Shown piece by piece: positions 5,418 to 22,432 of a DNA stretch of 64,000 nt. How positions within the stretch are numbered: position 1 is the first letter of the stretch; each line of letters starts with the position of its first letter. The notes beneath the pieces are model-generated. The model ran no database searches and had not been told where the DNA came from. It worked only from the letters and a program-made list of their open reading frames with translations. Made by a program: the position numbers and the translations under genes. Location: contig JBBISG010000003.1 of assembly GCA_037441365.1 (NCBI GenBank), positions 14,624-78,623 of the forward strand. The letters run 5' to 3'. This stretch comes from Nitrospirota bacterium. GTDB lineage: Bacteria; Nitrospirota; Thermodesulfovibrionia; Thermodesulfovibrionales; UBA9159.

Positions 5418-5837
5418 ATGCAGATAACGCGAGAGGCCGACTATGCAATAAGGTGTGTGCTTCATCTCTCAGAATCTGAGGGTGAGATTGTTATGGTGAA
5501 TGAGATCGCAAAGGCAAGAAAGATACCGCGAAGCTTTCTTGCCAAGATACTCCAGAGACTTGCAAAGGCAGGGATTATTAAATCCTTCAGGGGTGTAAAT
5601 GGCGGTTACCAGCTTGCAAAGAGTCCTGAAAAGATCAATCTCCTTGATGTTATCGAGGCCATAGATGGGCCTGTTGCTATGAACAGGTGCGCTATAGACA
5701 GGAGGATGTGCAGTCTGAGTGATGAATGTGTTGTCCATCCTGTGTGGGTTGAACTCAGAAAAGAGACAGAAAGGCGTCTGAGGAAGATAGACTTCAGGCG
5801 TCTAATGGTGTTGCAGGTAGGGGTCGTGAAGGGATAA
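5418..5837 (+). CDS. Rrf2 family transcriptional regulator (IscR/NsrR-like, Cys-containing)
   Basis: 139 aa; MQITREADYAIRCVLHL start, wHTH, C-terminal Cys cluster C-x6-C-x5-C (NRCAIDRRMCSLSDEC). Confidence 0.9.
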   Translation: MQITREADYAIRCVLHLSESEGEIVMVNEIAKARKIPRSFLAKILQRLAKAGIIKSFRGVNGGYQLAKSPEKINLLDVIEAIDGPVAMNRCAIDRRMCSLSDECVVHPVWVELRKETERRLRKIDFRRLMVLQVGVVKG

Positions 5838-5866
5838 TCCATCTGTTACATAGATGTTTCATCATA

Positions 5867-5882
5867 TGTTTCATTTGAAACA
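5867..5882. promoter_or_regulatory. TGT-N10-ACA palindrome (TGTTTCAttTGAAACA), NifA-type UAS consensus
   Basis: perfect 7-bp inverted repeat; centre about 65 nt upstream of the -24 element at 5934. Confidence 0.4.
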
Positions 5883-5933
5883 AAGTCAGACAGGGGCAGG
5901 GGTAAGATTGCTGATATATCGTGCAGATATAAC

Positions 5934-5949
5934 TGGCATGAGTATTGCA
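5934..5949 (+). promoter_or_regulatory. sigma-54 promoter (TGGCAT-gagta-TTGCA)
   Basis: GG-N10-GC spacing exact; near-consensus TGGCAC-N5-TTGCA; upstream of the cox operon. Confidence 0.55.
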
Positions 5950-6018
5950 CTTTAATAAAAATATATTTTAAAGAGAAGAGAAGAGTTTTGTGATTAAAGA
6001 GGATAATTTAAGTCCTGA

Positions 6019-6051
6019 ATATAGGTCCTATAGGACTTATAAGACCTATAT
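6019..6051. repeat. REP-like element copy 2
   Basis: ATATAGGTCCTATAGGACTTATAAGACCTATAT between the sigma-54 promoter and coxIII. Confidence 0.8.
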
Positions 6052-6129
6052 AGGAAGTGAGGGAGTTTCTTATTTAGTTCCTATTTAACTATTTGTTTGT
6101 TAATTGACAAACCAAGGGAGGAGGATGAG

Positions 6130-6912
6130 ATGCAAGAGAAGGCTGTTTATCACGGAGTCGAACACCACGAGCCTGAGCTCAGCGCATGGCCCTTTGTGGT
6201 GGGGATGTCGGGATTGGTCGTAATGATCGGTTTTATGACCGCATTTCAGTGGAAGCTGCCGATCGCTGGTATGGTGCTTGGAGGGGCAGGTGTTGTGGGC
6301 ATATTGATCGGGCTGTTTGGTTGGGTCTCGGAGGTCTATGCAGGAAAGTTAGAGGAGGGATTAAGCAAGATAGCCGTATTGATATTTATCCTCTCAGAGG
6401 CAGCCCTGTTCGGAGGTTTGTTCGGAGGTTATCTCTATAACATGTTTCCTGCGCCTGTCTGGCCGCCTTCAAATACCCCTGCTGGTGTCCCGCCTGTGAG
6501 CGTTGCCCTTATACTGAGTGTTTTTCTTCTTTCATCAAGTGCCACGATACAGATGGCAGAGACGAAACTCGAAAGGGGTGAGATGGGCGGTTTTAAGGGA
6601 TGGCTCCTTTTTACCATGATACTCGGGGCCCTCTTCCTTGCAGGGCAGGCAAGTGAATGGTCTAAACTCATTGGCGAGGGCTTCACTGTCTCAACCAATG
6701 CCTATGGGACATTCTTTTACACCATAACAGGCTTTCACGGTTCACATGTCCTGGTCGGCATTATTCTCCAGTTCTTTATCCTTCTGTTAGCCATCAGGAA
6801 TAAGATAGGCATGAAGCGGCAGACGATAGTAAGGGCATGCGGCTACTACTGGCATTTTGTTGATGGTATATGGCTGCTTGTTCTTTCGCTGATCTACATA
6901 CTTCCGTCCTGA
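6130..6912 (+). CDS. heme-copper oxidase subunit III
   Basis: polytopic; C-terminal FHGSHVLVG and YWHFVDGIWL motifs typical of subunit III; ATG 6130 has a GGGAGGAGG SD (track start 6097 is TTG). Confidence 0.8.
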   Translation: MQEKAVYHGVEHHEPELSAWPFVVGMSGLVVMIGFMTAFQWKLPIAGMVLGGAGVVGILIGLFGWVSEVYAGKLEEGLSKIAVLIFILSEAALFGGLFGGYLYNMFPAPVWPPSNTPAGVPPVSVALILSVFLLSSSATIQMAETKLERGEMGGFKGWLLFTMILGALFLAGQASEWSKLIGEGFTVSTNAYGTFFYTITGFHGSHVLVGIILQFFILLLAIRNKIGMKRQTIVRACGYYWHFVDGIWLLVLSLIYILPS

Positions 6913-6922
6913 TGGAGAGGGG

Positions 6923-7753
6923 ATGCTTAAGTTTTTTACAATGGTTGTTTCCCTGGCATTATTCATCACCCCTCAGTCTTTCGCCAGGACGCAGTTCACA
7001 AAATCCGACTTCAACCCGGCGGTTATGAAGATCAAGGAGGACGACTATCTCGGCAAGACGGCGCCAGATATAAAGATGCTCGATGATACAGGCAGGGCAT
7101 TGACCCTCGGCAGCCTTACAAGCAGGCCCTTAATACTGCTGCTCATCTATTACAACTGCCCTAACATATGCCCCCTTCTTGGCGAGGGATTGGCGAATTC
7201 CCTCAATTATATTGGCGATCTCAAATTGGGCACTGATTACAATGTCCTTGTGCTCAGTTTTGATAGGGGTGACACCCCAGAGAAGGCAGCGGAGTTTCAT
7301 AGAAAACTCCAGAGGCAGGTAGGGCTGCAGGACATAGACAGGTGGGTCTTTGCAACCGCTGCGGAAGATGATATCAAGACCCTCACCGAGGCAGTGGGGT
7401 ATCGCTTCTTCTATTCGTCTGAGGATAACATGTTTGTCCATCCCAGTGTCTATATCTTTCTCTCTCCAGGCAGAAAGATAACGAGGTATATCTTCGGGAT
7501 AAAACCAGACCCATTCAGCATCAGGCTGGCGATCCTCGAATCAGTCAGGGGCGTTATAGGAAAGGTTCCGATATCGAGCTTAGCCACACTTGCCTGTTAC
7601 AGGTATGACGCTGAAAGCAGAGGGTATGTCTTGAATCTGCCATTTCTATTTGCATCGGTAGGGGTCGTCATGGCAGTCATGACGGCTATTTTGACTATTG
7701 TTGTTTACAGGAAAAGGAAGTGCTTAAAAACGGATCAAGGAGGTAAGATATGA
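6923..7753 (+). CDS. SCO1/SenC copper chaperone, membrane anchored
   Basis: 276 aa; signal/anchor; CxxxC motif YYNCPNICP; C-terminal TM. Confidence 0.8.
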   Translation: MLKFFTMVVSLALFITPQSFARTQFTKSDFNPAVMKIKEDDYLGKTAPDIKMLDDTGRALTLGSLTSRPLILLLIYYNCPNICPLLGEGLANSLNYIGDLKLGTDYNVLVLSFDRGDTPEKAAEFHRKLQRQVGLQDIDRWVFATAAEDDIKTLTEAVGYRFFYSSEDNMFVHPSVYIFLSPGRKITRYIFGIKPDPFSIRLAILESVRGVIGKVPISSLATLACYRYDAESRGYVLNLPFLFASVGVVMAVMTAILTIVVYRKRKCLKTDQGGKI

Positions 7754-8727
7754 AAAAGGGTTTCTGGATTCTTGTTTCTGTGGTATTGCTCTTCTGCCTG
7801 TTTTCTCTTGCTATTGCTGGAGATAGAGCGGTCGATCCTGCTAAAAGCTGGGACAACCACTACAATCTATATTTCATACTTGTTGCAGGCATCTGGCTTT
7901 TAGTGACCGTTCTCCTCGTATACTTCAGCCTCAGATACAGGAGGAAAAAGGGGCAGGGAGACGGCGCCTACATCCCGGGTAATACCCTTCTTGAGATAAT
8001 CTGGACGGTAGTGCCGCTCATTATAGTTACCCTTCTTGGTGTCCAGACATGGGCGGTGTATAAAGAATACCGGCATGTTCCGAAGGATGCCTATGAGGTC
8101 AATGTTGAGGGGTTCATGTGGGGATGGAATGTGACATATCCTGAAGGGATCAAGACTATCAATGAATTGAGGGTTCCTGCTGGCAGACCCGTAAAAGTCA
8201 ATCTCACAAGTAAAGATGTTCTTCACGCCTTTTTTATACCGGAATATCGTGTGCAGGAAGAGGCTATCCCTGAAAGGACAACCTTCTTCTGGTTCAAACC
8301 TTCAAGGGCCGGGGAATATAGGGCATACTGCACAGAATTCTGCGGCAATGGCCATTCCCTCATGCTCGCGAAGGTTGTAGCAATGGAAAAAGACGGCTTT
8401 GATGCGTGGGTCGCCCAGCAAAAAGGCGCTGTGGCGAAGCTTTTACCTGTAGATAGAGGGAAGAAGCTTGTAGAGGACCTCGGTTGCCTTGGCTGTCACA
8501 CACTCACAGGCGAGAAGTCAGCAGGCCCGTCATTGAAAGGTGTGTATGGAAGGGAGACTATGCTTGCTGACGGCAGAAAGGTTGTGGCGGATGATGAATA
8601 TATAGAACATGCGCTGGAGACACCCAATAGAGATGTTGTTAAGGGGTATACCCCGACAATGCCGCCCTATAAATTGCCCATTGAAGATGAGCATGCAATA
8701 GTTGAATATCTAAAGACCTTAAAATAA
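7750..8727 (+). CDS. cytochrome c oxidase subunit II with C-terminal cytochrome c domain
   Basis: CuA motif HAFFIPE...CTEFCGNGHSLM; heme-c CLGCH; 2 N-terminal TMs. Confidence 0.9.
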   Translation: MKKGFWILVSVVLLFCLFSLAIAGDRAVDPAKSWDNHYNLYFILVAGIWLLVTVLLVYFSLRYRRKKGQGDGAYIPGNTLLEIIWTVVPLIIVTLLGVQTWAVYKEYRHVPKDAYEVNVEGFMWGWNVTYPEGIKTINELRVPAGRPVKVNLTSKDVLHAFFIPEYRVQEEAIPERTTFFWFKPSRAGEYRAYCTEFCGNGHSLMLAKVVAMEKDGFDAWVAQQKGAVAKLLPVDRGKKLVEDLGCLGCHTLTGEKSAGPSLKGVYGRETMLADGRKVVADDEYIEHALETPNRDVVKGYTPTMPPYKLPIEDEHAIVEYLKTLK

Positions 8728-8746
8728 AAAGGAGGAGGTAATATCA

Positions 8747-10360
8747 ATGAATCAGGAAACAGTTAAGGGGTCAGGGTTAAAGGGATGGATATTCACCACT
8801 GACCATAAGAGGATTGCGGTTTTATACCTCATTACGAGCCTGGTTGTCTTTACCCTCGGGCTTCTCCTCGCCCTTGTTATGAAGGCCGAGCAGTGGTCAC
8901 CTGGCAAAGACATCATAGACGCAAAGCTCTACAATGTCTTTTTCACAATCCACGGTGCAGGGATGATACTCTGGTGGATGATACCTGTCTATACAGGCTT
9001 TTTTGCAAATCTCCTTGTGCCATTGATGATAGGGGCAAGGGATGTGGCATTTCCGAGGCTTAATGCCCTGAGTTTCTGGTTCTTTGCAGGGGCAACTGTC
9101 ATGGCTGTTTTAGCCCTTGTTACCCCAGGGCGTCTCGATATTGGATGGACGGGCTATCCACCATACTCTATAAAGTCGGATGCAAACACATCCCTCTATG
9201 TCTTTGCTGTCCATCTCCTCGGTGCCTCAGCGCTCGCATCGGCGGTAAATTTTTTAACCACCATCATCACAATGAGGGCGCCAGGTATGACATGGGGGAG
9301 GCTCAACCTTGCTGTATGGGGAATCCTTGGCGCCTTTATCATCCAGCTCTTCGGGATCCCTGTCCTTGCAGGGGCGGTGACACTGCTTCTGTTTGATAAA
9401 TATCTCGGCACAAACTTTTACAACGCTGCCATGGGCGGCTCGTCCATGCTTTATCAGCATCTGTTCTGGTTCTATGCCCATCCTGCCGTCTATGTTATAG
9501 CACTTCCTGCCTTTGGTATCGTATCTGAAATAATCTCCACCTTTTCGAGGAAAAAGATATACGGGTACACAAGCATGGTAATAGCCATAATGGCAATAAC
9601 ATTCCTCGGTTTTGATGTCTGGATTCACCATCTCTTTACAAAAGGTGTTGAGGATTGGGCCAGGATTGTCCAGTCATTACTGACAATACTTATAGGCGTG
9701 CCTACAGGCATAAAGGTCTTCAACTGGCTTGCAACGATGCATAAGGGTTCGATAGAGTTCAAGGCCCCGATGCTCTATGCCGTAGGCTTTATAACGCTGT
9801 TTGTGATCGGAGGGGCGACAGGTATCGCGAATGGCCTTCTGGCGATAGACCTCCATGTGCATGACACACTCTGGGTTGTAGCCCATTTCCATAATGTCCT
9901 TTCAATGGCCATGACCCTCGTTGCATTTGCAGGTATATATTTCTGGTACCCGAAGTTTACAGGCCGCATGTACAGCGAAGGGCTTGCGAAGGTAGCCTTC
10001 TGGATAATCCTCGTGGGCTCGCTGCTTGCATTCGTTCCATTTTATAAACTCGGTCTCCTCGGAATGCCAAGGAGGTACTGGAGCTACCCTGCTGAGTTTA
10101 CGGACACCTACAGGTTAACTGTAATAGGCGGCTATATACTCGTGCTCGGCTTTTTGCTGACACTGGTAAATATAATTCGTTCTGCCTTTGCAGGCGAGAA
10201 GGCTGCTGCAAATCCATGGGGAGCAAAATCCCTCGAATGGACGCTGCCATCCCCTGTGCCTGTATATAACTTTGAGAAGATTCCTGTTATAACAGCAGGC
10301 CCATACGAATATGGAAGGCCTGAGGAGAAGGCCGTCCCTGAGGGCGCCCAGGCTGTTTAA
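8747..10360 (+). CDS. cytochrome c oxidase subunit I (A-type)
   Basis: 537 aa; FFTIHG, WFYAHPAVY, WIHHLFT, VAHFHNV heme/CuB ligand motifs. Confidence 0.95.
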   Translation: MNQETVKGSGLKGWIFTTDHKRIAVLYLITSLVVFTLGLLLALVMKAEQWSPGKDIIDAKLYNVFFTIHGAGMILWWMIPVYTGFFANLLVPLMIGARDVAFPRLNALSFWFFAGATVMAVLALVTPGRLDIGWTGYPPYSIKSDANTSLYVFAVHLLGASALASAVNFLTTIITMRAPGMTWGRLNLAVWGILGAFIIQLFGIPVLAGAVTLLLFDKYLGTNFYNAAMGGSSMLYQHLFWFYAHPAVYVIALPAFGIVSEIISTFSRKKIYGYTSMVIAIMAITFLGFDVWIHHLFTKGVEDWARIVQSLLTILIGVPTGIKVFNWLATMHKGSIEFKAPMLYAVGFITLFVIGGATGIANGLLAIDLHVHDTLWVVAHFHNVLSMAMTLVAFAGIYFWYPKFTGRMYSEGLAKVAFWIILVGSLLAFVPFYKLGLLGMPRRYWSYPAEFTDTYRLTVIGGYILVLGFLLTLVNIIRSAFAGEKAAANPWGAKSLEWTLPSPVPVYNFEKIPVITAGPYEYGRPEEKAVPEGAQAV

Positions 10361-11211
10361 TGCGATTTATAGAGTATATTAAGTTAACATCCCCTGGTAT
10401 AACCCTGTTAGTGGCACTGACAGGCTTTACAGGGATGTGGATTGCCTCCAGAGGAACGGCTGAACCCTTGCTGTTCCTCTGGTGCCTTTTAGGGATTGCC
10501 CTGTCCTCTGCAGGGTCTTCTGTTTTTAACAATTACTATGACAGAGATATTGACCGGTTAATGAAGAGGACATCTAAAAGACCTCTCCCATCAGGGAAGG
10601 TAAATCCGGCAGGTGCGTTTATATTCGGAATCTCTCTCTCTTTAGCGTCCTTCCTGGTTTTAAACTTTTTTGTAAATACTCTATCCGCTGTTTTAGCAGC
10701 ACTTGCCATATTGGTGTATGCCTTCCTTTATACGGTGATACTTAAGAGAAAAACACCCCATGCAACTGAGATAGGTGGGATATCAGGCGCACTTCCTCCT
10801 GTTATTGGATGGGTAGCGGTTAAAGGCAGTGTCGGCATAGAGGCCCTGCTGCTCTTTGCGATAATGTTCCTCTGGCAGCCCCCACACTTCTGGTCACTCG
10901 CATCGAGGTATAGAGAGGATTATAAAAATGCTGGCATTCCAACCATGCCTCTGATAGTCTCTGAAGATGAAACAAACATGCGCTCACTTATATATATTGC
11001 CTCATTGCTTGTGGTGAGTTTTTTGCCTTACCTTACTGGAATGTTTGGTAAGCTTTACCTCTCTGTATCCCTGACCCTCGGAATTATTTATCTTTTGCTT
11101 TATCTCGTGACTCTTTTCTCAAAAAGGGATTTGAACAGGTCCCTCTTTTTTTATTCCATTATATACCTTTCATTGATTTTTTTATGCATGGTCATCGACA
11201 TTCAGGGGTAA
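10360..11211 (+). CDS. ctaB: protoheme IX farnesyltransferase (heme O synthase)
   Basis: 283 aa UbiA-family; NNYYDRDIDRLMKRTSKRPLPSG motif. Confidence 0.9.
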   Translation: MRFIEYIKLTSPGITLLVALTGFTGMWIASRGTAEPLLFLWCLLGIALSSAGSSVFNNYYDRDIDRLMKRTSKRPLPSGKVNPAGAFIFGISLSLASFLVLNFFVNTLSAVLAALAILVYAFLYTVILKRKTPHATEIGGISGALPPVIGWVAVKGSVGIEALLLFAIMFLWQPPHFWSLASRYREDYKNAGIPTMPLIVSEDETNMRSLIYIASLLVVSFLPYLTGMFGKLYLSVSLTLGIIYLLLYLVTLFSKRDLNRSLFFYSIIYLSLIFLCMVIDIQG

Positions 11212-11258: not shown

Positions 11259-12035
11259 ATGGCAACAGTACTCTTTGATAATGGTGTTCATAAATGTATC
11301 GTCTTTGATGATATTTTAAGCGGAGATGTTAGAGGGACGGACATCCAGGCAAACCAGTTCCTTATAATACACAATGGTGAAGGATTACTGTATGACCCTG
11401 GGGGGAGTAAGGTTTTTGATCCCCTTTATAAAAGGGTTTCAGAATTTATTAAACCTTCGAGGATAAAGACCATCGTGCTTTCCCATCAGGACCCTGACAC
11501 AGGGGCTGCTATAAACTGGTGGATGCTGTTTTCAGCATCTAAGGTCTTTGTGCCGAGTCTCTGGATAAGGTTTATACCACATTTTACCAGATTAGACGTT
11601 GAAGCGGGTTACTATGTCCCCATACCTGAACAGGGGATGCGATATGATTTTCATGGCTCAGAGATAATTATGCTGCCAGCACATTTTCTACATTCCCCTG
11701 GTAATGTCCAGCTTTATGATACAGCCTCGAAGATACTCTTTTCGGGCGACCTGGGGACATCTATTGTTCCCGATGCAAAGTGGTTTACAGAGGTGATAGA
11801 TTTTGAAGAGCATGTGAGATATATGGAAGGCTTTCACAAGAGATATATAGCCTCTCAGAAGGCGTGCAGGCTATGGGCTAATATGGTGAGGAGATTGGAT
11901 ATTGAGGCAATAGTTCCCCAGCATGGACATAGATACTTTAAGGGTAAAGCTATGGTCAACAGATTTATTGACTGGATAAGTGATCTACAGTGTGGCGTGG
12001 ACTTACTCGATGGGGAAAACTACAAAATTCCATAG
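11259..12035 (+). CDS. MBL-fold metallo-protein (variant HQDPD motif; diiron/ODP-like possible)
   Basis: 258 aa; LSHQDPDTGAAINWW in place of HxHxDH; later His/Asp ligand contexts HFLHSPG, FSGDLG, PQHG. Confidence 0.65.
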   Translation: MATVLFDNGVHKCIVFDDILSGDVRGTDIQANQFLIIHNGEGLLYDPGGSKVFDPLYKRVSEFIKPSRIKTIVLSHQDPDTGAAINWWMLFSASKVFVPSLWIRFIPHFTRLDVEAGYYVPIPEQGMRYDFHGSEIIMLPAHFLHSPGNVQLYDTASKILFSGDLGTSIVPDAKWFTEVIDFEEHVRYMEGFHKRYIASQKACRLWANMVRRLDIEAIVPQHGHRYFKGKAMVNRFIDWISDLQCGVDLLDGENYKIP

Positions 12036-12122
12036 TATCCATAATGAATCTACCGCAGCAATGACAAACCTACAACCTGTCATTCCTTCGCTATGTTCAG
12101 GACGGCGGCTGAATCCTTCGAG

Positions 12123-12161: not shown

Positions 12162-13541
12162 ATGAGTCTACTCAAAGGGAAAGAGATGGCTTCTGATATT
12201 CTTTTTCCAATCCCAGATCGGGAGTCACGCCGCCTTGCTGCCGGCTGGCTGATACTCAGCATAGCATCCCTTGTCGCTGCCGGATTATTTTCGATAGTCC
12301 TTGTGCTGTCGCGAACACCCTATGTGCAGAACATCTTCCCATGGGTGGATTTTTTTCATTCAGCCCTGGTTGTGCATGTGGACCTTTCGATCCTGATATG
12401 GTTTCTCTGCTTTGGAGGTGTGTTGTGGAGTATAAACTCTCTCCCGAGGTGGTCGGGTCTGGGCTGGCTGTCCCTTTTCCTTTCAGCTTCAGGAGGTTTA
12501 ATAATAGCTATTTCGCCATTTCTCGGAGCAGGTCGCCCTCTCATGAACAACTACGTGCCTGTCCTTCAGGACCCTATGTTTTTTGCCGGACTTGCAGTAT
12601 TTGCAGTAGGAATCCTCCTGATGCTGGCGCGAAGTTTAGCAGCTCATACCCCTCTGGGGAGTCTGATGGATATTGCGAGTGGATTAAGATTCGGGATTTA
12701 TGCCTCGTCGATGACTGCATCTATCGGAGCGGTTGCGATTGTCTGGTCGTATCTGACTATCCCCGATGCCATTCAGGGCACGGTGTATTATGAGGTTCTC
12801 TTCTGGGGAGGGGGGCATATCCTTCAGTTTGTATATCTCATACTCATGCTTGTTGCATGGCTGTGGTTGGCCTATGTTTCTGGTATACCCTTTCGCATGA
12901 GTCCACTGATAGTTATCCTTCTATTTGGGCTCCTCCTTGCGGTGGTTCTTCTTACCCCGGTGATTTATCTATCCTTTGATACAGGCTCATTTGGGCATCG
13001 GCAGTCATTCACCCTGTTGATGAAATACGGCATGGGGCTGCCGCCACTCTTGATCGGCATGGTTTTGCTGAAGGGGATTTTGCAGAGAAAGGCCACTGAA
13101 AATATGCGCCATATCCGTGCAGCCCTTACCACCTCTATGGTGCTTTTTGGATCTGGTGGGGTTATCGGTTTCTTAATCAATGGCATTAATGTCACTATAC
13201 CATCCCATTATCATGGCGCTATTGTAGGAGTGACCCTGTCATTCATGGGATTGACTTACTATCTATTGCCCCATCTCGGTTTCCGCAATCCCACACCCCG
13301 CCTCTCCATCATCCAGCCCTATATTTATGGTATTGGCCAGCTTTTGCACATCCTCGGCCTCGCCTGGGCAGGCGGCTATGGTGTCCAGCGCAAGGTGGCA
13401 GGCAGCGCTCAGGGCCTGGATAGCTTCAAGAAGATGTTGAGCATGGGGATCATGGGCATTGGTGGATTTATAGCCGTTATCGGAGGCTTCCTGTTTTTAG
13501 TGGTGGTTATTCATGCCTTGTGGCCTACCCGTGAACAGTGA
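12162..13541 (+). CDS. heme-copper-oxidase-subunit-I-like 12-TM membrane protein (divergent)
   Basis: start moved to ATG 12162 (alt 12186) past the REP copy; LFWGGGHILQF and GGVIGF...IPSHYHGAIVG parallel helix VI and X motifs of the coxI in this window. Confidence 0.5.
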   Translation: MSLLKGKEMASDILFPIPDRESRRLAAGWLILSIASLVAAGLFSIVLVLSRTPYVQNIFPWVDFFHSALVVHVDLSILIWFLCFGGVLWSINSLPRWSGLGWLSLFLSASGGLIIAISPFLGAGRPLMNNYVPVLQDPMFFAGLAVFAVGILLMLARSLAAHTPLGSLMDIASGLRFGIYASSMTASIGAVAIVWSYLTIPDAIQGTVYYEVLFWGGGHILQFVYLILMLVAWLWLAYVSGIPFRMSPLIVILLFGLLLAVVLLTPVIYLSFDTGSFGHRQSFTLLMKYGMGLPPLLIGMVLLKGILQRKATENMRHIRAALTTSMVLFGSGGVIGFLINGINVTIPSHYHGAIVGVTLSFMGLTYYLLPHLGFRNPTPRLSIIQPYIYGIGQLLHILGLAWAGGYGVQRKVAGSAQGLDSFKKMLSMGIMGIGGFIAVIGGFLFLVVVIHALWPTREQ

Positions 13542-13661: not shown

Positions 13662-13691
13662 TTGACAATTTTAAGAATTCAGGATTAAAAT
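13662..13691 (+). promoter_or_regulatory. sigma-70-like promoter (TTGACA-18 nt-TAAAAT)
   Basis: read directly upstream of the 13870 operon. Confidence 0.4.
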
Positions 13692-13744: not shown

Positions 13745-13767
13745 AGGACGGTTTCCGTCCTGTTTTT
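13745..13767 (+). terminator. intrinsic-terminator-like hairpin in the 5' leader (AGGACGG-ttt-CCGTCCT + GTTTTT)
   Basis: 7-bp GC-rich stem, 3-nt loop, T-run; sits between the promoter at 13662 and the ATG at 13870. Confidence 0.4.
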
Positions 13768-13869
13768 AAATACCAAGAGGAGGGTTTAAGATGGCAGAAG
13801 AAGCAGTAGGTATGAATGGAAACCTGTAAAGGGTTTCGCTCATTAAAAACTAAAAAGGAGGAAATTGAT

Positions 13870-15207
13870 ATGTATCCTATCTGGGAAGTGCCAAATTTAA
13901 GTGCGGGGATTATACTGGCACTGATTGCAGCATTTCATATCCTGCCCTCACATCTCTCGACAAGTGCCATGTGGTTTAATGTCTTTGTAGAGACAAAGGC
14001 ATACAGGGAAAACAGGCCTGAATATCTTGAATTCATTAAAAAATACACTCTGCTTTTGCTTGTATTCGCCTATGTCCTCGGTTCCTTGAGCGGAATTGGC
14101 ATCTGGTATTCTGCCACTGTGGCAAACCCGAGGGGTATTTCAGGTCTGATCCACAACTATGTCTGGGGATGGGCAACAGAATGGGTCTTTTTCATAATCG
14201 AGGTGACAGGGATATTCATCTATTACTATACCCTCGGCAAGGTGGATAGAAAGACCCATCTGAAGATCGGCTGGATATTTGCCATTGGCTCATGGACGAC
14301 CATGGTAATTATTGTCGGCATTTTAGCCTTTATGCTTTCGCCAGGCAAATGGCCTGAGACAGGAAATTTCTTTGACGGCTTCTTCAACCAGACATACTGG
14401 TCTCAGCTTTTGATGAGGACTACATTGATGTTTGGCATTGCAGCAGCCTATGCCATTGCAGTGGCAACGAGGATAAAAAATGCGGATGTGAGGTCATTCA
14501 TTACGAAGACAGCATCAAAGTGGGGAGTAGCAGGTTTAATACTCGGCTGTGTTTTGTTCTTATGGTACCTGAAGACCCTTCCTGATGCAAACCGTATGTT
14601 GATTACAGCGCTTGTGCCGCAGGGACTTAAGACAGGGATAATTGTTTCGTTAGGGTTGTTGGTTCTCTATTTCATCTATGCAAATGTAAAACCTCTCGGC
14701 ATCAGACTTTTTCCTGCTATTCTGGCAATCGCTGTGCTTTTTGGAGGCATCTGGTCAACCGAGAGAATCAGGGAAATGATAAGGAAGCCATATATCATTC
14801 CTCAATATATGTATTCCAACCAGATAATAGGAAAGGACATTCCAGCAAAGGGTGTAAGCGCTGAGGCAAAAATTATAAACGAAAAGGGGATACTCAAGGT
14901 TGCACCCTTTGTGCCTGATGGTTTAAGGGAGATAAACGAAGGCAATCAGGTGCAGGCAGGAAAGATGATAGCCCTGATTGAATGCTCATCCTGTCATGTC
15001 CTAAATGAAAAGGGTTTAAGGGCAATGCCGCAGATGGTGAGGAGGCTTGAGTTTAAACCCCATGCAGAGGCTGCTGATGAGATCAAAGAGGTTGAGGGCT
15101 TTATTGATGCGCTTGGTGGATACCCTTATATGCCGCCTTTTGTTGGTTCAGTAGCAGAGAAAAAGGCATTAGCAACATATCTGCATTCAATTTCACGCAT
15201 CAAATAA
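13870..15207 (+). CDS. cytochrome bd subunit-I-like membrane domain fused to a C-terminal mono-heme cytochrome c
   Basis: ATG 13870 has an AAAGGAGGA SD; N-terminal helices recall CydA (AFHILPSHLS, ATEWVFFIIEVTG); C-terminal CSSCH with downstream Met. Confidence 0.5.
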   Translation: MYPIWEVPNLSAGIILALIAAFHILPSHLSTSAMWFNVFVETKAYRENRPEYLEFIKKYTLLLLVFAYVLGSLSGIGIWYSATVANPRGISGLIHNYVWGWATEWVFFIIEVTGIFIYYYTLGKVDRKTHLKIGWIFAIGSWTTMVIIVGILAFMLSPGKWPETGNFFDGFFNQTYWSQLLMRTTLMFGIAAAYAIAVATRIKNADVRSFITKTASKWGVAGLILGCVLFLWYLKTLPDANRMLITALVPQGLKTGIIVSLGLLVLYFIYANVKPLGIRLFPAILAIAVLFGGIWSTERIREMIRKPYIIPQYMYSNQIIGKDIPAKGVSAEAKIINEKGILKVAPFVPDGLREINEGNQVQAGKMIALIECSSCHVLNEKGLRAMPQMVRRLEFKPHAEAADEIKEVEGFIDALGGYPYMPPFVGSVAEKKALATYLHSISRIK

Positions 15208-15217
15208 GGAGGATAAC

Positions 15218-16429
15218 ATGGAAATAAATACAATGTTAAAGGCCTTGCAGGATCCGATGGGGGTACCATTTTATCCGGTTGTGTTTCAGGTTTTGATGGT
15301 GCTCACTTTTGCACTTCATATAATGTTCGTGAATTTTACCCTCGGGACATCATTCTTATCCGTATATGGATATCTAAAGGGAGGAGAAAACTGGGGAAGG
15401 CTTTCTAGATCACTTGCGAAGGCAACCACAGCCAATATCTCCATGGCAATGCTTTTAGGGGTAGCGCCGCTTCTCTTTGTTCAGGTTGTGTATGACCCGT
15501 TCTGGTATGCATCCAATACCCTTTCTGCCGCATGGGTTATAGGTTTTATATTCATAATGATGCTCGGCTACAGCCTGACATATGTCTTCTACCTGAAGAG
15601 GGATTCAAGGGGAGGAGGCTTTGCTATATTCGGGGTTATAGCCTTAGCCCTCTTTCTGCTTTCAGGCATCATCATGCATGCCCTCGGGTATCAACTGCTT
15701 CAACCTGAAAAGTGGCTTCAATGGTATGTGAGGGGAAATTCTGTTGATACATCCGGGACATCCCTACATGCCTTCCAGCTTCCGAGGTTTCTGCATTTCA
15801 TTATCCCGTCCTTTGCCATGACAGGCATATTCCTGATGCTTTATGCATGGTATTTCAAAAACAGGACAGATTCCGATAAAGGCTATCTTGAATGGGTTGG
15901 CAGAACCGGCGCAAAGATGGCATTCACTTTTACAGCCATACAGGCCATTGTCGGCTTCTGGTGGTTGTTCAGTCTGCCTGGTGAGTTCAATTTCTTCACA
16001 AGCCCGTTCTTTCTAATAGGCGCAGCGCTTGGAATCGCATTGCTGTTTTTTCTCTATAATGCGCAGAAGGATCCCGTTAAATACGCAGTGCCGGGCATAC
16101 TGGGGGCTTTCCTGACAATCCTTGGAATGTCCTATGCGAGGGAAGCTTTGAGGATGAAATATCTCAGCCGCTTTGATTATTCCATCTTTAACTACAAGCT
16201 GAATATTGACTGGGGCAGCACAGCCTTATTCCTAACAACATTTGTGATGGGCCTGTCCATCATAGGCTATCTTATATCCGTTGCATATAAGTCCGGCAGG
16301 GTCGCGGGTGAATTTACTGCCACGCCTTCCATGAACAAATGGGGAAGGATCAGCATTGCCTTGCTTTTGGCCTGGATAGTTGTGGTGGCAGGGTTGGGGG
16401 TTATAATATCTCTCAAAAACTACTTATGA
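15218..16429 (+). CDS. polytopic membrane protein, operon partner of the bd-like subunit (function unknown)
   Basis: 403 aa, about 9-10 hydrophobic helices; AAGGAGGA SD; 10-nt gap from the upstream gene. Confidence 0.5.
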   Translation: MEINTMLKALQDPMGVPFYPVVFQVLMVLTFALHIMFVNFTLGTSFLSVYGYLKGGENWGRLSRSLAKATTANISMAMLLGVAPLLFVQVVYDPFWYASNTLSAAWVIGFIFIMMLGYSLTYVFYLKRDSRGGGFAIFGVIALALFLLSGIIMHALGYQLLQPEKWLQWYVRGNSVDTSGTSLHAFQLPRFLHFIIPSFAMTGIFLMLYAWYFKNRTDSDKGYLEWVGRTGAKMAFTFTAIQAIVGFWWLFSLPGEFNFFTSPFFLIGAALGIALLFFLYNAQKDPVKYAVPGILGAFLTILGMSYAREALRMKYLSRFDYSIFNYKLNIDWGSTALFLTTFVMGLSIIGYLISVAYKSGRVAGEFTATPSMNKWGRISIALLLAWIVVVAGLGVIISLKNYL

Positions 16430-16471: not shown

Positions 16472-16648
16472 TTAATTTGTGAGCCTTTCATTTTTGAAGA
16501 CCCTGTAGCCGCAGAAGTGGCATACCGTCTCCTCTTCATCCGACCAGAGCTCAACATCCTCCCCACATTCCGGACAGGTGATGAGATCAGGGAAAGGTGA
16601 GTATTTTTCAGCACAGGCAGGTTTTTCCTTAAACCCCGACTTTTTCAT
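16472..16648 (-). CDS. 58-aa zinc-ribbon protein (CPEC-x15-CHFC), below the track cutoff
   Basis: hand translation MKKSGFKEKPACAEKYSPFPDLITCPECGEDVELWSDEEETVCHFCGYRVFKNERLTN*; ATG overlaps the end of the upstream gene by 20 nt. Confidence 0.45.
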   Translation of the reverse strand: MKKSGFKEKPACAEKYSPFPDLITCPECGEDVELWSDEEETVCHFCGYRVFKNERLTN

Positions 16649-17078
16649 TTGCCTTCCTCCAGCCTTCCCTCGACAGTCTCTCCATCCTTGTGGTGGCCCA
16701 TTCCTTGAGCTCCTCGAGATATCTCCGGGGATTTATCTTTGCAAGCTTCATTATCTCTGTTCTTTCCACTACGCTGTCCAGATGGTCTGTGGGATAAATT
16801 CCTCGCCATGTACAGTAACCCTCATCAAAGATAAAATCAGGGGTTATATTGTGGACACCTGTCTTTATCTTCTGTGCCTGAAATCTTGCAATGTCCATAT
16901 CGTATTCAATAATCCAGCCGTTGTCGGCCACCATCGTCTCTGGATTGAATTTGATACTACTCGAACACTGCGGACAGTACAGCCTGCTTATGACCTCACC
17001 TGACATTATCTCGTCTTTGAAGTTGAAGCCTGCCAGGCCGTTTCCACAACTACAGTTTATTTCATATGCCATGCACAT
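16629..17078 (-). CDS. hypothetical Cys-motif protein (CSCGNG ... CPQCSS)
   Basis: 149 aa from ATG 17078 (AAGGAGGA SD 7 nt upstream); no family recognised. Confidence 0.6.
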   Translation of the reverse strand: MCMAYEINCSCGNGLAGFNFKDEIMSGEVISRLYCPQCSSSIKFNPETMVADNGWIIEYDMDIARFQAQKIKTGVHNITPDFIFDEGYCTWRGIYPTDHLDSVVERTEIMKLAKINPRRYLEELKEWATTRMERLSREGWRKANEKVGV

Positions 17079-17100
17079 CTCCAAATCCTCCTTAGGTTTT

Positions 17101-17160
17101 TGTCATTCTGAGGCGAAGAATCTCTATAATAAGAGATGCTTCACTTCATTCAGCATGACA
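17101..17160. repeat. imperfect 25-29-nt inverted repeat (TGTCATTCTGAGGCGAAGAATCTCT-ataata-AGAGATGCTTCACTTCATTCAGCATGACA)
   Basis: read directly in the spacer downstream of the rubrerythrin-like gene stop (17202) and upstream of the 17078 gene start. Confidence 0.5.
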
Positions 17161-17201
17161 GATTGATGGATCAAGTCCTCTGTTGACAGGCCCTTACATG
17201 G

Positions 17202-17627
17202 TTAATGGCTCATAAAGAACCTGTCGAGAATACCCCTTAGCATCCTTGCGTGTCTTGCCTCATCTCTCGATGACTCATCAAAGAAGTCATGGGCAGGATC
17301 ACAGTTGCACTCCCTTGCCTTTTTTGCAGCCTCTTTCTTGCCCTTATTTGCGCCGATCTCTCCCTGAAGCATCTTCTCAAGGTTTTCCTTTGTGCTCTTC
17401 GAGATGAGGCCATTCATTTCTGCGAACTGGGCTGCATGTTCTGCCTCTTCCCATGCAATTGTCTTTAGCGTCTCGGCCACCTCTGGATAGCCGTCCCTTT
17501 GTGCCTGCCTTGCCATTGCAAGGTAGAGACCCACCTCTGTGCATTCCCCCTTAAAGTTTCCCATTACAGCATCCTCTACCTCGGTGCCTTTTGCTACGCC
17601 AATTTCATGTTCATTGATAAGCTCCAT
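17202..17627 (-). CDS. rubrerythrin-like diiron (ferritin-like) protein lacking the rubredoxin domain
   Basis: 141 aa; ExxH motifs EEAEHAAQF and DEARHARML. Confidence 0.85.
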
Positions 17628-17772
17628 TTTAAACCTCCAGATAATCTCTTAAATGGGAGTCAAAGACTCCTTTTAATTGTTGTTAAACCGGCGATACCCT
17701 TTCTGGGGTCGCCCCACCTGATTCTCTATTCGAGCCACGGAGGCATATCCATCCCTGGTATGCCTGCTAATT

Positions 17773-18384
17773 CTATTTCAGTGCCTCATATACCTTTCCA
17801 ACCAGCTTTGCGGATGGTTTAAGTGTCCTGTCACCTTCATCCTTCCATTTTGATGGGCAGCCTTCATCCGTATGTTTTGCAAGATGGAGATTAGCCTTAA
17901 ACTTTCTCATTAATTCATCAATATTTCTGCCCATATTGTAGTAGTTTACCTCTGAATTAAGGAGTTTCCCCTCAGGGCTGATTATAAATGTCCCTCTCAA
18001 TGCAAGGCCTGTTGCATCATCATATACGCCAAACATCCTTGAGACCTTCCCTGTAGGGTCTGCAGCCATCGGATATTTCACATCGGCGAGCATTTTCTCT
18101 TCCCTCTGCCATGCAAGATGGACAAACTTTGTGTCTGTGCTGACTGTGATGACCTCAGCTCCCATTTTTTTGAATCTCTCATACTGCTCTGCCAGAGCAG
18201 CAAATTCTGTAGCTCAAACAAATGTAAAGTCCGCAGGATAGAAAACAAGTATCGTCCATTTCTTGTTCGCCTTTAGCGTTTCAAGACTGACCTCACCAAA
18301 ATCACCCTTTGACGGCTCGAAGGTCTCGAGCTTAAAATCCGGGACCATCTGTCCCACCATTAAACCACAGCAATTCTCACTCAT
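17773..18384 (-). CDS. 2-Cys peroxiredoxin with selenocysteine (UGA codon 57) at the peroxidatic position
   Basis: ATG 18384 with AAGGAGGT SD; MSENCCGLMVGQMVPDFKLETFEPSKGDFGEVSLETLKANKKWTILVFYPADFTFV-TGA(18216..18214)-ATEFAALAEQYERFKK then the 130-aa track ORF in the same frame; resolving-Cys motif EGCPSKW. Confidence 0.75.
18182..18202 (-). other. candidate bacterial SECIS hairpin (UGCUGCUCU-GGC-AGAGCAGUA)
   Basis: 9-bp stem starting 11 nt 3' of the UGA. Confidence 0.5.
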
Positions 18385-18412
18385 TTTTAATACCTCCTTA
18401 CTTTATTTTTCC

Positions 18413-18517
18413 CTACTGTTTCTGCATCATGCCCTTTTCTCCGCATTTGGGGCACTTCTGAGGTTTGCACCTCCCTTCAACCTTTGCACCGCACTTGCTG
18501 CATTTAAATACTGCCAT
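18413..18517 (-). CDS. 34-aa rubredoxin-knuckle mini-protein (CxxCG ... CPxCG), below the track cutoff
   Basis: MAVFKCSKCGAKVEGRCKPQKCPKCGEKGMMQKQ*; GGAGGAGGTG SD; ATG directly follows the Fur-family stop codon. Confidence 0.5.
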   Translation of the reverse strand: MAVFKCSKCGAKVEGRCKPQKCPKCGEKGMMQKQ

Positions 18518-18934
18518 TTATATCACCTCCTCCTTTTGCTCATGGTTCTGGCAATCAGGGCATATTCCATAAAACTCGATATGGTTGCCGATTATCTTGA
18601 ATCCGCCCTGTGATTCCTTTTTAACAGTAACTGAGAATTTATTGTGAATATCCATGATCTTCCTGCATCTGATACAGATCAGGTGGTGATGTGGTTCGGT
18701 GTTAGGGTCGAATCTCTTTTTATCAGGGTCTATTGTGAGTTCGATTATGTTTCCCCTTTTCCTCAGCGCATCAAGGGTGTTATAGACAGTTGCAAAGGAC
18801 ATGGTAGGGAATCTCTTTGATACCTTCCTGTAAATCTCTTCTGCAGAGGGATGATTCTTGTTACCATCAAGGTAATCAAGAATCGCCAGCCTCTGCGGTG
18901 TTAGTTTGAACCCTATGTTTTTATATTTTTCCAT
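18518..18934 (-). CDS. Fur family regulator (PerR-like by context)
   Basis: 138 aa; wHTH; HHHLICIRCRKIMD and CPDC zinc motifs. Confidence 0.9.
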   Translation of the reverse strand: MEKYKNIGFKLTPQRLAILDYLDGNKNHPSAEEIYRKVSKRFPTMSFATVYNTLDALRKRGNIIELTIDPDKKRFDPNTEPHHHLICIRCRKIMDIHNKFSVTVKKESQGGFKIIGNHIEFYGICPDCQNHEQKEEVI

Positions 18935-19380: not shown

Positions 19381-20103
19381 ATGGTTGAACTAAGAAAGGC
19401 CCTCTATCTTTTCCCGATCTTAATACTCCTGTCTGCAGTCTCTGCCCCTTCTGAAGACATATACGGAAAAAGGCGTCAGGCCATGCTGGAGCAGGATATA
19501 AAGGCCAGGGGGATAAAGGACGGTAAGGTGATCTGGGTGATGGGGAGGGTGCCGAGACACCTCTTTGTTGATGAGCACCTGAGGGCAAAGGCATATGAGG
19601 ATTATCCCCTTCCAATAGGCGAGGGCCAGACAATATCCCAGCCCTATGTAGTCGCCCTGATGACAGAGGCGCTGAGACTGAGGCCGACTGATAGGGTCTT
19701 AGAGATAGGCGCTGGTTCAGGTTATCAGGCAGCAGTCCTTGCAGAGATTGTAAAAGAGGTCTATACAATAGAGATCAGGAAGGGGCTTGCTGAGAAGGCC
19801 GAGAGAAGACTTAAAGATCTGGGTTACAAAAATGTAAAGGTTAAGTATGGTGATGGATATTTTGGTTGGGAAGAATATGCGCCCTTCGATGCCATAATCA
19901 TAACCGCCTCAGCAAATTACATCCCACCGCCGCTCATAAGGCAGCTAAAGGAAGGCGGCAGGTTGATCATCCCCCTTGGGAGCACTGTATATTACCAGAC
20001 CCTGACACTGGCAACAAAAGAGAGAGGGGAGCTAAATTTAGAGCAGATAGCGCCTGTTGCTTTTGTGCCTATGATTGGAGAGGTCCAGATGAAGGGAAGG
20101 TAA
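19381..20103 (+). CDS. pcm: protein-L-isoaspartate O-methyltransferase
   Basis: [35 protein letters not shown] motif; N-terminal signal-like segment. Confidence 0.9.
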
Positions 20104-22432
20104 AAAATGCCAGCAGATATGTCCCGCTGCCTATCCAGAGAACCGTCTTAAAGCCTACAGCCATTGCGAGCATTATGGCAGCAATTGGCGCCAGTATCGA
20201 GAGGCAGCCATTTATTGCCCACGCCCATGGTATAAGGTCAGGGCATCTCTCTCCGAGGGCCTTCAATCCGGTGGGGAATGGGATCCCCATCAACATGCTA
20301 AGAGGGATGAGGAATGTAAATGTTAACAGAATCTTAAGCGGCAGTGAATATTGTGAGACGGTCCCTGAGAGTGGTGGTATAAGAAGGCTGTAGACAATGA
20401 TCAGGAAAGAGAGGGCGATAAGCATATAGGGGCGCCTCAATCCCGGAAACCTGTGACTCAGCAGACTCCCCATGCCAGAGCCGATGAGTATAGAGGTGAG
20501 GACAGCTGCGGCAGCATAAAATGGAATTTCGAGGGTGAGGATCATTTTCTGGATCAGGGAGACCTCTACAAACATGAATCCGAGGCCGATGGATGCAAAG
20601 TAGAGGAACAGATTCAGATCAAGGTTAAGACCCCTTCCCTTAATTCTGGTCTTAATTGCCATAGCGGGCATAATTGTAAGTGCAATGCTCAGCAAAAGCA
20701 CCTGTATAAATACAGCAGGGAGGAGATAGCCTTCTTCTATGAAGAACTGCCACTTCCGGCCCATCAGGTCGTAGATTTTTTTAAGGTTTTTGAGCCTCAG
20801 GAAATAATGGAAGAAGGGGTTTTCATCGCGCACAGGTCGGATATCGAAGATGTAGCTGCGCTGAAATCTCTGGCGCGTCTCGGGACTGAGTATCTCCTTA
20901 AATGCCATAGGGTATTCGTCTGAAGGCATCTTCACATAAACATTCGTCTCTTCCCTCTTTATCCCCGGCAGATAAACGAGATCGAATCTCCTTTCCTTCG
21001 AGAATCTCCTGATGGCATTGATCTCTTGAGGTTCAAACACGGACCTCTTGGCGAGGATGCATAGCGTCCCCCAGCTCCTGATGGCAGCAATCCTTTTCTC
21101 TACATCCTCTATGCCCATCTCTTCCATCGATTGGGCGATTGTGCTCAGGAGCCTCAATTCTATCCTCGGGGGCGGAAGAATAAAGAGGTTTATGCTAAGG
21201 ATACCGTTATTATTTAGATGTCTCAGATATTCTTTGAATGCCTCCACAGTAAACCTGTAGTCCTCGGCTATCCCGAATGAGCTTGATGGCGAGGCCCCGA
21301 TCAATGGCATATCTATAATGTCGAATCTCCTGTCATTCCTTTTCAGCCATGACCTGCCCATGCCCGACCATGTTTTTTCTTTATAAATGCCCCCCGAGAA
21401 GTCATCGAGCGCATCCCTGATGACCTTTATTACATAGGGATTGGAGTCCACCTTATGGATGTTTTCTGAACCGCTCATTATGGCCAGCAGGACCTCCAGC
21501 CCTCCCCTCGGCTCGACGATCAAGACATTATCCCTTCTGCCTATTTCGTAAGGAAGCGATGATGGCAGATATTTGAGAAATCCGAGGGATTCCTTCTTTT
21601 CTGCATTTGTGATGCTGTTTATATCACCTCCATCGATGGAAATCCCTATCTGCTCAGGAAGCCCTTCAAGGTATTTGAGGCTTAACCCGGGCGCAAATCT
21701 CGCAGCAGGGCTTTTAAATATATCTATGCGCGAAAATGGGGTGTTATAGGTCTTTATACGTTCTGCATCAGGATATCTCAGGGCGAGCTGGAGTCCTTTG
21801 TATGGCGACATCCTCGGCTCAAGGACGGGCATGGAGATGATAAACAGGTTTAATAAGATGAGGGATGCAGATGCAATCCCTGTCTTCAATCCGCCGGTAA
21901 TTAACGAGCCTGTTAATGCTATGGATGAAATGATTATGACTGCCTTTTCAGGACCGACGACGCTCAGGAAAAACAGAAGAAAGATAGAACCTGCACCAGC
22001 GCCGAGAAGGTCAGACCCATAGAGGATTCCAGCCCTCTCGCTTGTTGTTGAAAAGGCGGTTGAGATGCATAATCCGAAGAAGAAGAAGGGTACGGCGAGG
22101 ACCATATAGTAGAGGCTGATATAGATTAGCTGTATCCTGTCCCAGGAAAGCCTGACAGGATCGAATGGTATCTGGTTCGATATGATATAGCTCAGGGAGA
22201 TGCCTGCACCTAAAAACACTCCGTAGAGACCGATCCTCGAAGGCGCTTTAAGCCCCGGGTACAGGGAGAGTGCTGTGCCGCTTGCAGCGATGCCGAGCAT
22301 GGCTATGCTTATCACCATGAAGGCAAAGTGATACCAGAGGGAGATCGAAAAGAGCCTTGTTAGAATTATCTCATATGAAAGGGCAGAGAATGAGAAGAAG
22401 AATATCCCCGTATATAATCGTGCCTTGGCCAC
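20069..22432 (-). CDS. polytopic membrane protein with central spermidine-synthase-like domain
   Basis: 787 aa; N- and C-terminal multi-TM blocks flanking [15 protein letters not shown]...KVDSNPYV Rossmann-type segment; 35-nt convergent overlap with pcm. Confidence 0.7.

Follow-up and report, generated by a model that had tools for sequence, protein, structure and literature searches.

A heme-copper oxidase subunit I-like family that keeps the predicted ligands of two hemes and lacks the helix VII histidine pair, encoded at the end of an A-type oxidase cluster in a Nitrospirota bacterium

A gene on the forward strand at 12162..13541 of a 64,000 nucleotide stretch from a Nitrospirota bacterium (assembly GCA_037441365.1, contig JBBISG010000003.1, forward-strand positions 14,624 to 78,623; the whole of this stretch, as analysed here, is called the window) encodes a diverged paralogue of subunit I of the heme-copper oxidases (HCO), a homology that is far beyond chance and is held with high confidence. 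Its sequence, read together with a cofactor-free structural model, gives high confidence that the predicted binding apparatus for two hemes has been retained, this being a bis-His low-spin site (H72/H351), a high-spin site (H349), the R410/K411 pair and W215. There is the same high confidence in the predicted loss, family-wide, of the three-histidine second-metal site, of which H219 is the sole remaining ligand. The family of this HCO-like protein, whose members are widely annotated, wrongly, as subunits of terminal oxidases, is a form of the HCO scaffold that has been neither described nor characterised.

The reading frame of the gene is intact and encodes 459 amino acids (aa) from 12162, the position from which residues are numbered here, as they were in the original prediction. 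There are alternative starts at 12093 and, most likely, at 12186. Of the three, it is the ATG at 12186 whose context is most like a Shine-Dalgarno site (GGGAAAGAG); it also agrees with the N-termini of homologues, so that the likely product is 451-459 aa.

Membership of the HCO superfamily, which had been proposed from heme-ligand motifs recognised by eye, is supported by profile comparisons, by the predicted fold and by conservation among 338 relatives. The Pfam COX1 model (PF00115) matches the protein with 42.8 bits (cutoff 34.8; E=4.2e-11) over profile positions 3-428 of 436, and hhalign against a mixed set of A-type oxidase and eNOR (a nitric oxide reductase, NOR) subunit I sequences gave a probability of 99.2%. 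When an 85-sequence alignment of the family was compared with 41 eNOR-type subunit I sequences, drawn from the same loci as the HCO-like homologues, the match was full length with a probability of 99.96% (E=3.9e-38, 26% identity). A diverse family profile also matched subunit I of the Thermus thermophilus ba3 enzyme over its full length (HMMER, E=5e-18). PDB sequence searches with the single sequence or a close-family profile returned no relevant match and only the diverse profile reached ba3; the solved structures that it reached are of B-family enzymes only (ba3 and 7deg_A). In global mode, hhalign against a 6-sequence A-type alignment alone gave no match, and the A-type relationship therefore rests on the Pfam match and on the mixed A-type/eNOR comparison. 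Since the profile reaches only B-family structures and the best relative is eNOR, the nearest branch is B-family/eNOR and, on sequence, the family is best seen as an offshoot of it.

An AlphaFold2 model made with 29 homologues has twelve transmembrane helices, with a mean predicted local distance difference test (pLDDT) of 79.8 and a predicted template modelling score (pTM) of 0.85. Foldseek against the PDB placed it closest to T. thermophilus ba3 and A-type (aa3) subunit I, at template modelling scores of 0.65-0.73. The N-terminus aside, pLDDT falls below 50 only in the periplasmic loops 124-130, 343-348 and 407-416; the equivalent loops of real oxidases pack against the heme propionates.

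The mixed A-type/eNOR, eNOR subunit I and ba3 profile alignments all gave the same residue equivalences, and the roles of the ba3 residues (PDB 1EHK/3S8F) are taken here to be established. Conservation was counted over 338 family sequences. In helix II, H72 (codon 12375..12377; all codons given are on the forward strand) aligns with the histidine of COX1, eNOR and ba3, where H72 is the low-spin heme ligand, and is His in 337 of the 338. The helix VI motif W215-GGG-H219-IL-Q222-F223 (12804..12830) has W215 and H219 in every sequence, Q222 in 337 and F223 in 301; W215 and H219 correspond to ba3 W229 and H233, the helix VI Trp and CuB ligand, with the Trp at -4 from the His as in canonical enzymes. 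In helix X, H349-Y350-H351 (13206..13214; 335, 333 and 334 of the 338) aligns with the GHFH of eNOR and ba3, such that H349 corresponds to the proximal ligand of the high-spin heme (ba3 H384) and H351 to the second ligand of the low-spin heme (ba3 H386). R410-K411 (13389..13394; 335 and 334 of the 338) is the equivalent of the heme-propionate RR pair and aligns with the PRR of COX1, eNOR and ba3. Conserved counterparts are therefore present for ba3 H72, H233, H384, H386 and R449/R450. The pairings that had been made by eye, of H72 in helix II, W215/H219 in helix VI, H349/H351 in helix X and R410/K411 in the LGL..GGYGVQRK segment, were all reproduced by these alignments.

The residues that occupy the sites of the helix VII CuB His-His pair (ba3 H282/H283) are I268-Y269 (12963..12968), at +49/+50 from H219. 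This spacing from the helix VI His is common to ba3, eNOR and the window's own COX1, which is canonical and has HPAVY and WIHH motifs. The register is supported by net zero indels between the helix VI and helix VII sites in the HMMER alignment with ba3, by an ungapped offset scan against the eNOR profile, which has its optimum at shift 0, and by the S-x-(K/R)-V at the start of helix VII that the HCO-like family shares with eNOR. In agreement with the original prediction, no His-His pair is present in helix VII of the protein (residues 248-271), and no helix VII His is found in any of the 85 locus-derived relatives. Over the 338 sequences, no His is found at position 268, whereas position 269 has 269 Tyr, 26 Phe and 9 His. 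The HH doublets that do occur, in 27 relatives, are at 278-286 or elsewhere and never at 268/269, and in 48 of the 338 the whole of residues 245-292 lacks His. The CuB/FeB site would therefore be altered or absent, as predicted, with two of its three His ligands lost family-wide and no sign in the alignments that they have been displaced.

The lone His that had been noted in SFGH is H279 (12996..12998), which is semi-conserved (His in 219 of the 338) and is situated at the start of helix VIII or in the periplasmic loop before it; it maps to ba3 T293 in the loop between helices VII and VIII, while the AlphaFold2 helix spans 277-289. Y269 and H279 covary, being found together in 209 relatives, and H279 is often preceded by Glu (E278 in 203 of the 338). 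In one hhalign run the His-His pair was aligned with G278-H279, but this needs a 10-residue insertion and was rejected as a His-matching artefact, the ungapped register being supported instead.

Other elements of the catalytic site are altered as well. The site of the O2-reductase cross-link Tyr, four residues after the helix VI His, is F223 (Phe in 301 and Tyr in 11 of the 338), and Y269 sits at a His-ligand position rather than at the position of the C-family Tyr; the sequence indicates that the cross-link Tyr is lost. The ba3 K-channel sites (Y237, Y244, Y248, S309, T312 and T315) have as their equivalents F223, L230, L234, A/T/P295 and L/I298, so that Y237 becomes F223, or Q222, and S309/T312 become Ala/Pro and Leu. 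By this mapping, which depends on ungapped alignment of helices VII and VIII, the B-type K-channel residues are predicted not to be conserved in the family. There is no dedicated CuA or heme c subunit II for the HCO-like protein in the window, where the sole COX2 belongs to the A-type operon; in this too it is unlike ba3. We infer that the protein would be incapable of classical heme-copper O2 reduction or of heme-FeB NO reduction.

Among the known enzymes, the best profile match of the family is to eNOR subunit I (Murali et al. 2024, PMC11214002). The two share the periplasmic loop (T/N)xYVP(M/V), the helix VI GH-x-x-Q and the RR/RK propionate pair, and neither has the cross-link Tyr. However, eNOR retains the helix VII His-His, present as AHH in 41 of 41 partner enzymes, where the HCO-like protein has Ile-Tyr, and the HCO-like protein is ~110 residues shorter, has no cupredoxin subunit II of its own and does not conserve the B-type K-channel sites. 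The part of the 2024 HCO classification drawn on here (PMC11214002) covers eNOR, sNOR, gNOR, nNOR, NOD and a putative N2O reductase, contains no mention of the HCO-like family, and gives gNOR, with one His changed to Asp, as the only family in which an active-site His is replaced. According to that part, gNOR is, like the HCO-like family, related to the B family and has lost a canonical active-site His, but it keeps a three-ligand metal site (His-His-Asp) and a cupredoxin subunit, whereas two ligands have become Ile and Tyr in the HCO-like protein. A gNOR-type site is not found among the 338 relatives, two ligand positions being lost and neither being Asp. No NCBIfam model or equivalog claims the protein in an NCBIfam scan, and since gNOR is stated to be the sole family with a replaced His, the HCO-like protein is outside the characterised HCO subfamilies. 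Literature searches found no described HCO family without CuB.

The family has nonetheless been noticed informally. A 2026 preprint names a gene of Ferrigenium straubiae (IMG 2878407321; hypothetical according to IMG and coxI, K02274, according to KEGG) the "eNOR scaffold protein of unknown function", which is said to be "very common" in eNOR operons, and its authors speculate on a supercomplex (bioRxiv 10.64898/2026.01.22.701106). The transcript of this gene was ~7-fold below that of eNOR I, and the protein was detected in the proteome (bioRxiv 10.64898/2026.01.22.701106). One of the loci collected here, from Gallionellales (L079), repeats the Ferrigenium gene order of eNOR II, eNOR I, heme O synthase, Sco1, cytochrome b-FeS-FAD-NAD, hypothetical, HCO-like and cytochrome b-FeS-FlpD. 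Judged by gene order, the Ferrigenium protein is very probably of the same family; like the HCO-like genes of Gallionellales and other Proteobacteria, its gene is in the eNOR operon slot after the Sco1 and cytochrome b-FeS genes. It differs from the window copy, in a Nitrospirota/Thermodesulfovibrionales-like genome, which sits in an A-type oxidase operon and not with eNOR. The preprint names the protein and gives no account of the missing ligands and no function. The family is thus noticed informally but not described or characterised and, as it is also widespread beyond the source genome, it is not categorically new. Beyond this naming, no characterised subfamily that would contain the protein was found.

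The first database search gave more than 4,700 matches, with ~55% identity across Gammaproteobacteria, Methylomirabilis, Bacteroidota and Nitrospirota, usually annotated as "cbb3-type cytochrome c oxidase subunit I". When the representatives of 50% identity clusters were searched exhaustively, 612 clusters matched at E<=1e-30 and 1,486 at E<=1e-3. The carriers comprise at least 595 species genomes, including sulfur oxidisers, Gallionellaceae and magnetotactic Nitrospirota, and the family has ~90 near-invariant columns at 33-55% identity across phyla.

In the window, the cluster is headed by a gene for an Rrf2-family regulator (5418..5837, forward strand), upstream of which there is a perfect σ70 consensus, TTGACA-17-TATAAT, at 5378-5406. 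This is followed by the A-type cytochrome c oxidase operon (6097..11211, forward strand), which encodes in order COX3, Sco1, COX2::cytochrome c, COX1 and the heme O synthase CtaB, and then by a gene between ctaB and the HCO-like gene (11259..12035, forward strand) for a di-iron metallo-beta-lactamase-fold protein of the ODP family (PF19583, E=2.6e-69). The HCO-like gene closes this Rrf2-cox-ctaB-ODP unit.

The original prediction had placed the gene after a cox-ctaB-metallo-beta-lactamase block, which is the case with the ODP gene as the last of these, and before a bd-like::cytochrome c gene. The latter is also true of its position, and a survey of co-occurrence found the bd-like pair near the HCO-like gene in 4 of 65 loci, all of them Nitrospirota. 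The 275-bp gap 3' of the HCO-like gene contains a promoter-like site at 13662-13691 (11 of 12 matches) and a hairpin at 13745-13761. Because these intervene and only 4 of 65 loci share the neighbour, the tie between the HCO-like gene and the bd-like genes is probably positional only. The first of the bd-like genes (13816-15207) encodes a CydA-like protein with a C-terminal heme c domain and the second (15218-16429) its 403-aa multi-transmembrane partner; a pairwise comparison of the two detected no homology. The pair has the features published for the OR-C1a/OR-C1b cytochrome bd-like family (bioRxiv 10.1101/2021.01.16.426971).

The oxidase cluster is adjoined by a minus-strand oxidative-stress block at 16629-18934. 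It contains, all on the minus strand, a Cys-rich 151-aa protein without assigned identity, rubrerythrin (17202-17627), peroxiredoxin (17773-18384) and a Fur/PerR-family regulator (18518-18934). Taken with the cox and bd-like genes, this block has the look of an anaerobe's O2-defence island. In the peroxiredoxin gene a TGA (18216-18214) lies in frame exactly at the site of the peroxidatic Cys (YPADFTFV-U-ATEF), and the protein is probably a PrxU-like selenocysteine peroxiredoxin. A strong Shine-Dalgarno sequence, AAGGAGG, precedes its ATG at 18384 and a stable hairpin lies ~14 nt past the TGA; mechanical calling of open reading frames shows only the C-terminal 130 aa.

Close Nitrospirota relatives keep the cox-ctaB-HCO-like order, either with ODP, as in L090 where the ctaB-ODP-HCO-like order is that of the window, or with an Rrf2 gene after the HCO-like gene instead; in L004 the Rrf2 gene is directly 3' of it. 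In Proteobacteria and Methylomirabilis, the cluster has a small protein, eNOR II, eNOR I, in some cases ctaB, SenC/Sco1, a cytochrome b-2x[4Fe-4S]-FlpD protein, in some cases hemerythrin, a 168-aa protein (p168) and, last, the HCO-like gene. NosR/nirS are often 3' of these clusters, with ctaA divergent at the front; indeed, ctaA is the divergent immediate neighbour in several loci. An identification of the proteobacterial partner enzyme as sNOR, with reference to the norSY-senC-orf1 cluster, was set aside in favour of eNOR because the Gallionellaceae enzyme is classified as eNOR; any two of the partner subunits share 60% identity or more.

Across the 65 loci with at least 5 kb of upstream sequence, the neighbours were Sco1/SenC in 85%, a bona fide HCO subunit I in 74% (41 eNOR-type, in the same operon, and 7 A-type), the cytochrome b-FeS protein in 72%, ctaB in 69%, p168 in 68% (44/65), the heme A synthase gene ctaA in 35% and hemerythrin in 31% (20/65). 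Directly 5' of the HCO-like gene, p168 (7491-7997 in L001) has an N-terminal transmembrane helix, probably a periplasmic domain, and two conserved Cys (ECR ... CPRERSP), with no Pfam or NCBIfam match. Hemerythrin (6768-7160 in L001) is in the neighbourhood equivalent to that of ODP in the window, in loci that are proteobacterial or NC10; the slot beside the HCO-like gene thus holds one or the other of two unrelated di-iron proteins that bind O2/NO, depending on the lineage. In eNOR clusters, the HCO-like gene is flanked by two unusual fusions of cytochrome b (5498-7438 and 9779-11356 in L079; 5186-6790 in L001), one type combining cytochrome b with [2Fe-2S], FAD and NAD-binding domains and the other with 2x[4Fe-4S] and an FlpD/MvhD-like domain. 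The p168, cytochrome b-FeS and hemerythrin genes were not found in the window and therefore cannot be obligatory partners. Compared over one set of genome pairs, the HCO-like proteins were less conserved (57.5% identity) than eNOR I (71.2%), and the two values track each other (r=0.79).

Natural fusions also occur. One HCO-like protein carries a fused heme O synthase, bona fide by its TIGR01473 score (250 bits, cutoff 210), one has an N-terminal cytochrome b (P0122), and 5 of 150 representatives have a 13th transmembrane helix and a C-terminal TPR domain, which is periplasmic by topology and bears a weak resemblance to the TPR of CcmH/CycH, from cytochrome c biogenesis. Two of these five TPR-fused forms, P0127 and P0198, are among the 9 of the 338 that keep the second His of the ancestral pair as His269 without H279 (P0123, P0133 and 5 others being the rest); this minority may represent an intermediate stage in evolution or a subfamily of its own.

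The function favoured, tentatively and at rather less than even confidence, is that of a predicted two-heme accessory paralogue in the maturation of the neighbouring oxidase or NO reductase. This role is preferred because it best accounts for the Sco1, ctaB and ctaA neighbours, for fusions with heme O synthase and TPR, for the association with more than one class of enzyme, and for the loss of proton-channel residues. That the gene accompanies both A-type (O2) and eNOR (NO) enzymes would make the role generic to HCO maturation and not tied to one substrate, and that the likely Ferrigenium orthologue is less transcribed than eNOR I, yet is present in the proteome, is as expected of an accessory factor. 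The lower conservation of the HCO-like proteins relative to eNOR I, with the two in correlation, is also taken to favour this role. The HCO-like protein would be a heme-loaded accessory of the neighbouring enzyme, which is A-type and caa3-like here and eNOR in Proteobacteria. It may receive heme O or A from the heme O/A synthases and, in contact with periplasmic partners, may hold or present it as the catalytic subunit matures. Such a role would be analogous to that of a catalytic-subunit paralogue serving as a cofactor scaffold. NifEN, the paralogue of NifDK, and the heme a insertion factors Surf1/CbaX are cases of a cofactor-scaffold paralogue or a membrane factor that is encoded with the enzyme and with cofactor-synthesis genes. 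An analogy with these would explain the heme O synthase fusion and the Sco1/ctaA/ctaB neighbourhood, although none of the three has any sequence relationship to the HCO-like protein, Surf1 and CbaX are small and not HCO-like, and heme transfer by the HCO-like protein is hypothetical.

This mechanism of assembly or heme handling is the weakest step of the explanation, and several observations weigh against it. It is not obvious why H219, Q222 and W215 should be invariant in an inert scaffold, or why identity should be ~55% across phyla, and such conservation looks like that of a working ligand pocket. The cytochrome b fusion and the near-constant cytochrome b-FeS neighbour point to electron transfer. 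The HCO-like gene is solitary, away from oxidase genes, in some magnetotactic Nitrospirota, and a tblastn search of the window (E<1e-5) found no ctaA homologue. To our knowledge, most A-type oxidases in nature mature without an HCO-like protein.

The main alternative is a redox or gas enzyme that works with heme only, which is possible but doubtful. In such an enzyme, the high-spin heme, with H219, Q222 and Y269 on its distal side and no second metal, would transform NO or O2, through NO dioxygenation or detoxification, O2 scavenging or O2 buffering, with electrons arriving via the low-spin heme from cytochrome c or cytochrome b-FeS. Distal pockets of His, Gln and Tyr are typical of globins that react with O2 or NO at high affinity, such as flavohemoglobin and the truncated hemoglobins, and it is this kind of pocket that H219, Q222, W215 and the 80% Tyr at 269 recall. 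Its conservation is strong for a mere chaperone, and a source of electrons is suggested by P0122 and the adjacent cytochrome b-2x[4Fe-4S]-FlpD gene. The adjacent di-iron proteins, ODP here and hemerythrin elsewhere, the adjoining nirS/NosR in Proteobacteria and the O2-defence island of the window, with its Rrf2 regulator, rubrerythrin, peroxiredoxin and Fur/PerR regulator, would likewise be in keeping with gas chemistry. However, there is no conserved proton pathway at the B-family K-channel positions, neither Y269 nor H279 is universal, relatives without any His in 245-292 exist, and the window has none of the cytochrome b-FeS, p168 and hemerythrin partners. Fusions with heme O synthase and a periplasmic TPR domain suit assembly better, and the Ferrigenium transcript is well below those of the structural subunits. 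That the family is a heme-only enzyme derived from an NO-reductase scaffold with gas chemistry of its own, as an undescribed catalytic class in the HCO superfamily, is rated as unlikely. The same rating is given to the examples of it that can be envisaged, a membrane NO dioxygenase, or a protein of anoxic denitrifiers and anaerobes that, with hemerythrin or ODP as a partner to bind O2, would make, buffer or deliver the O2 on which heme A synthase depends.

It is also improbable that the protein is a structural or electron-relay subunit, in which the two hemes would act as a wire, for example from cytochrome b-FeS through the HCO-like protein to eNOR or the oxidase, with no chemistry or role in biogenesis of its own. 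Conservation of both heme sites with loss of the catalytic metal site would fit this, as would the recurrence of consecutive cytochrome b-FeS, p168 and HCO-like genes in Proteobacteria, the cytochrome b fusion and the supercomplex on which the preprint authors speculate. Against it, the window and other Nitrospirota loci lack the cytochrome b-FeS and p168 partners, a five-coordinate high-spin site whose distal His and Gln are invariant is more than a pure wire would require, and the mRNA level in Ferrigenium is sub-stoichiometric.

A normal catalytic HCO with displaced ligands, in which for example H219, H279 and E278 or Y269 would form a new NOR- or oxidase-type metal site, is very unlikely. 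The His at 279 in 65% of relatives, often preceded by Glu, its covariation with Y269, the one hhalign placement of G278-H279 and the His kept at 269 in 9 relatives could be read in this way. But that placement is the one that requires the 10-residue insertion, the ungapped register puts H279 in the periplasmic loop between helices VII and VIII, the site is Phe, Tyr or another residue in one third of the family, the region can lack His altogether, and neither a dedicated CuA or heme c subunit II nor a conserved proton channel accompanies it. A decaying, functionless duplicate of subunit I, to which the loss of key catalytic residues might point, is excluded to a negligible chance by the conservation of the family, with its intact reading frame, the species genomes, clusters and near-invariant columns counted above, conserved synteny and a likely Ferrigenium orthologue detected as protein. 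A sensor was considered and rejected, there being no signalling domain, no recurrent kinase or anti-sigma neighbour, and fusions only with heme O synthase, cytochrome b and TPR.

Elsewhere in the window, the open reading frame for cysteinyl-tRNA synthetase (36353-38473, minus strand) is of 706 aa and has a ~230-aa N-terminal extension with a hexapeptide-repeat, acetyltransferase-like segment. This could be a serine acetyltransferase-like fusion, or the start may have been called too far upstream. A 787-aa open reading frame (20069-22432, minus strand) has no Pfam match at E<=0.001, and there are no tRNA genes in the window.

The HCO-like family is a large and strongly conserved branch of the superfamily in which, as predicted from sequence, both heme pockets have been kept and the metal site discarded. 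The formally described HCO families, as given in the part of the 2024 classification drawn on here, all keep a three-ligand metal site, gNOR being the first with one ligand replaced (PMC11214002). The genes are embedded in operons of eNOR, an environmentally important enzyme that produces N2O, and of the oxidases of anaerobes. Because they are annotated as "cbb3-type cytochrome c oxidase subunit I" or coxI, counts of terminal oxidases are inflated and metabolic reconstructions of anaerobes and denitrifiers are misled. If the protein is an assembly or heme-handling factor, it would help to explain how NO reductases and oxidases of the heme-A type mature at very low O2, a question that has been raised explicitly for Ferrigenium (bioRxiv 10.64898/2026.01.22.701106). 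As an enzyme, it would represent a new catalytic class.

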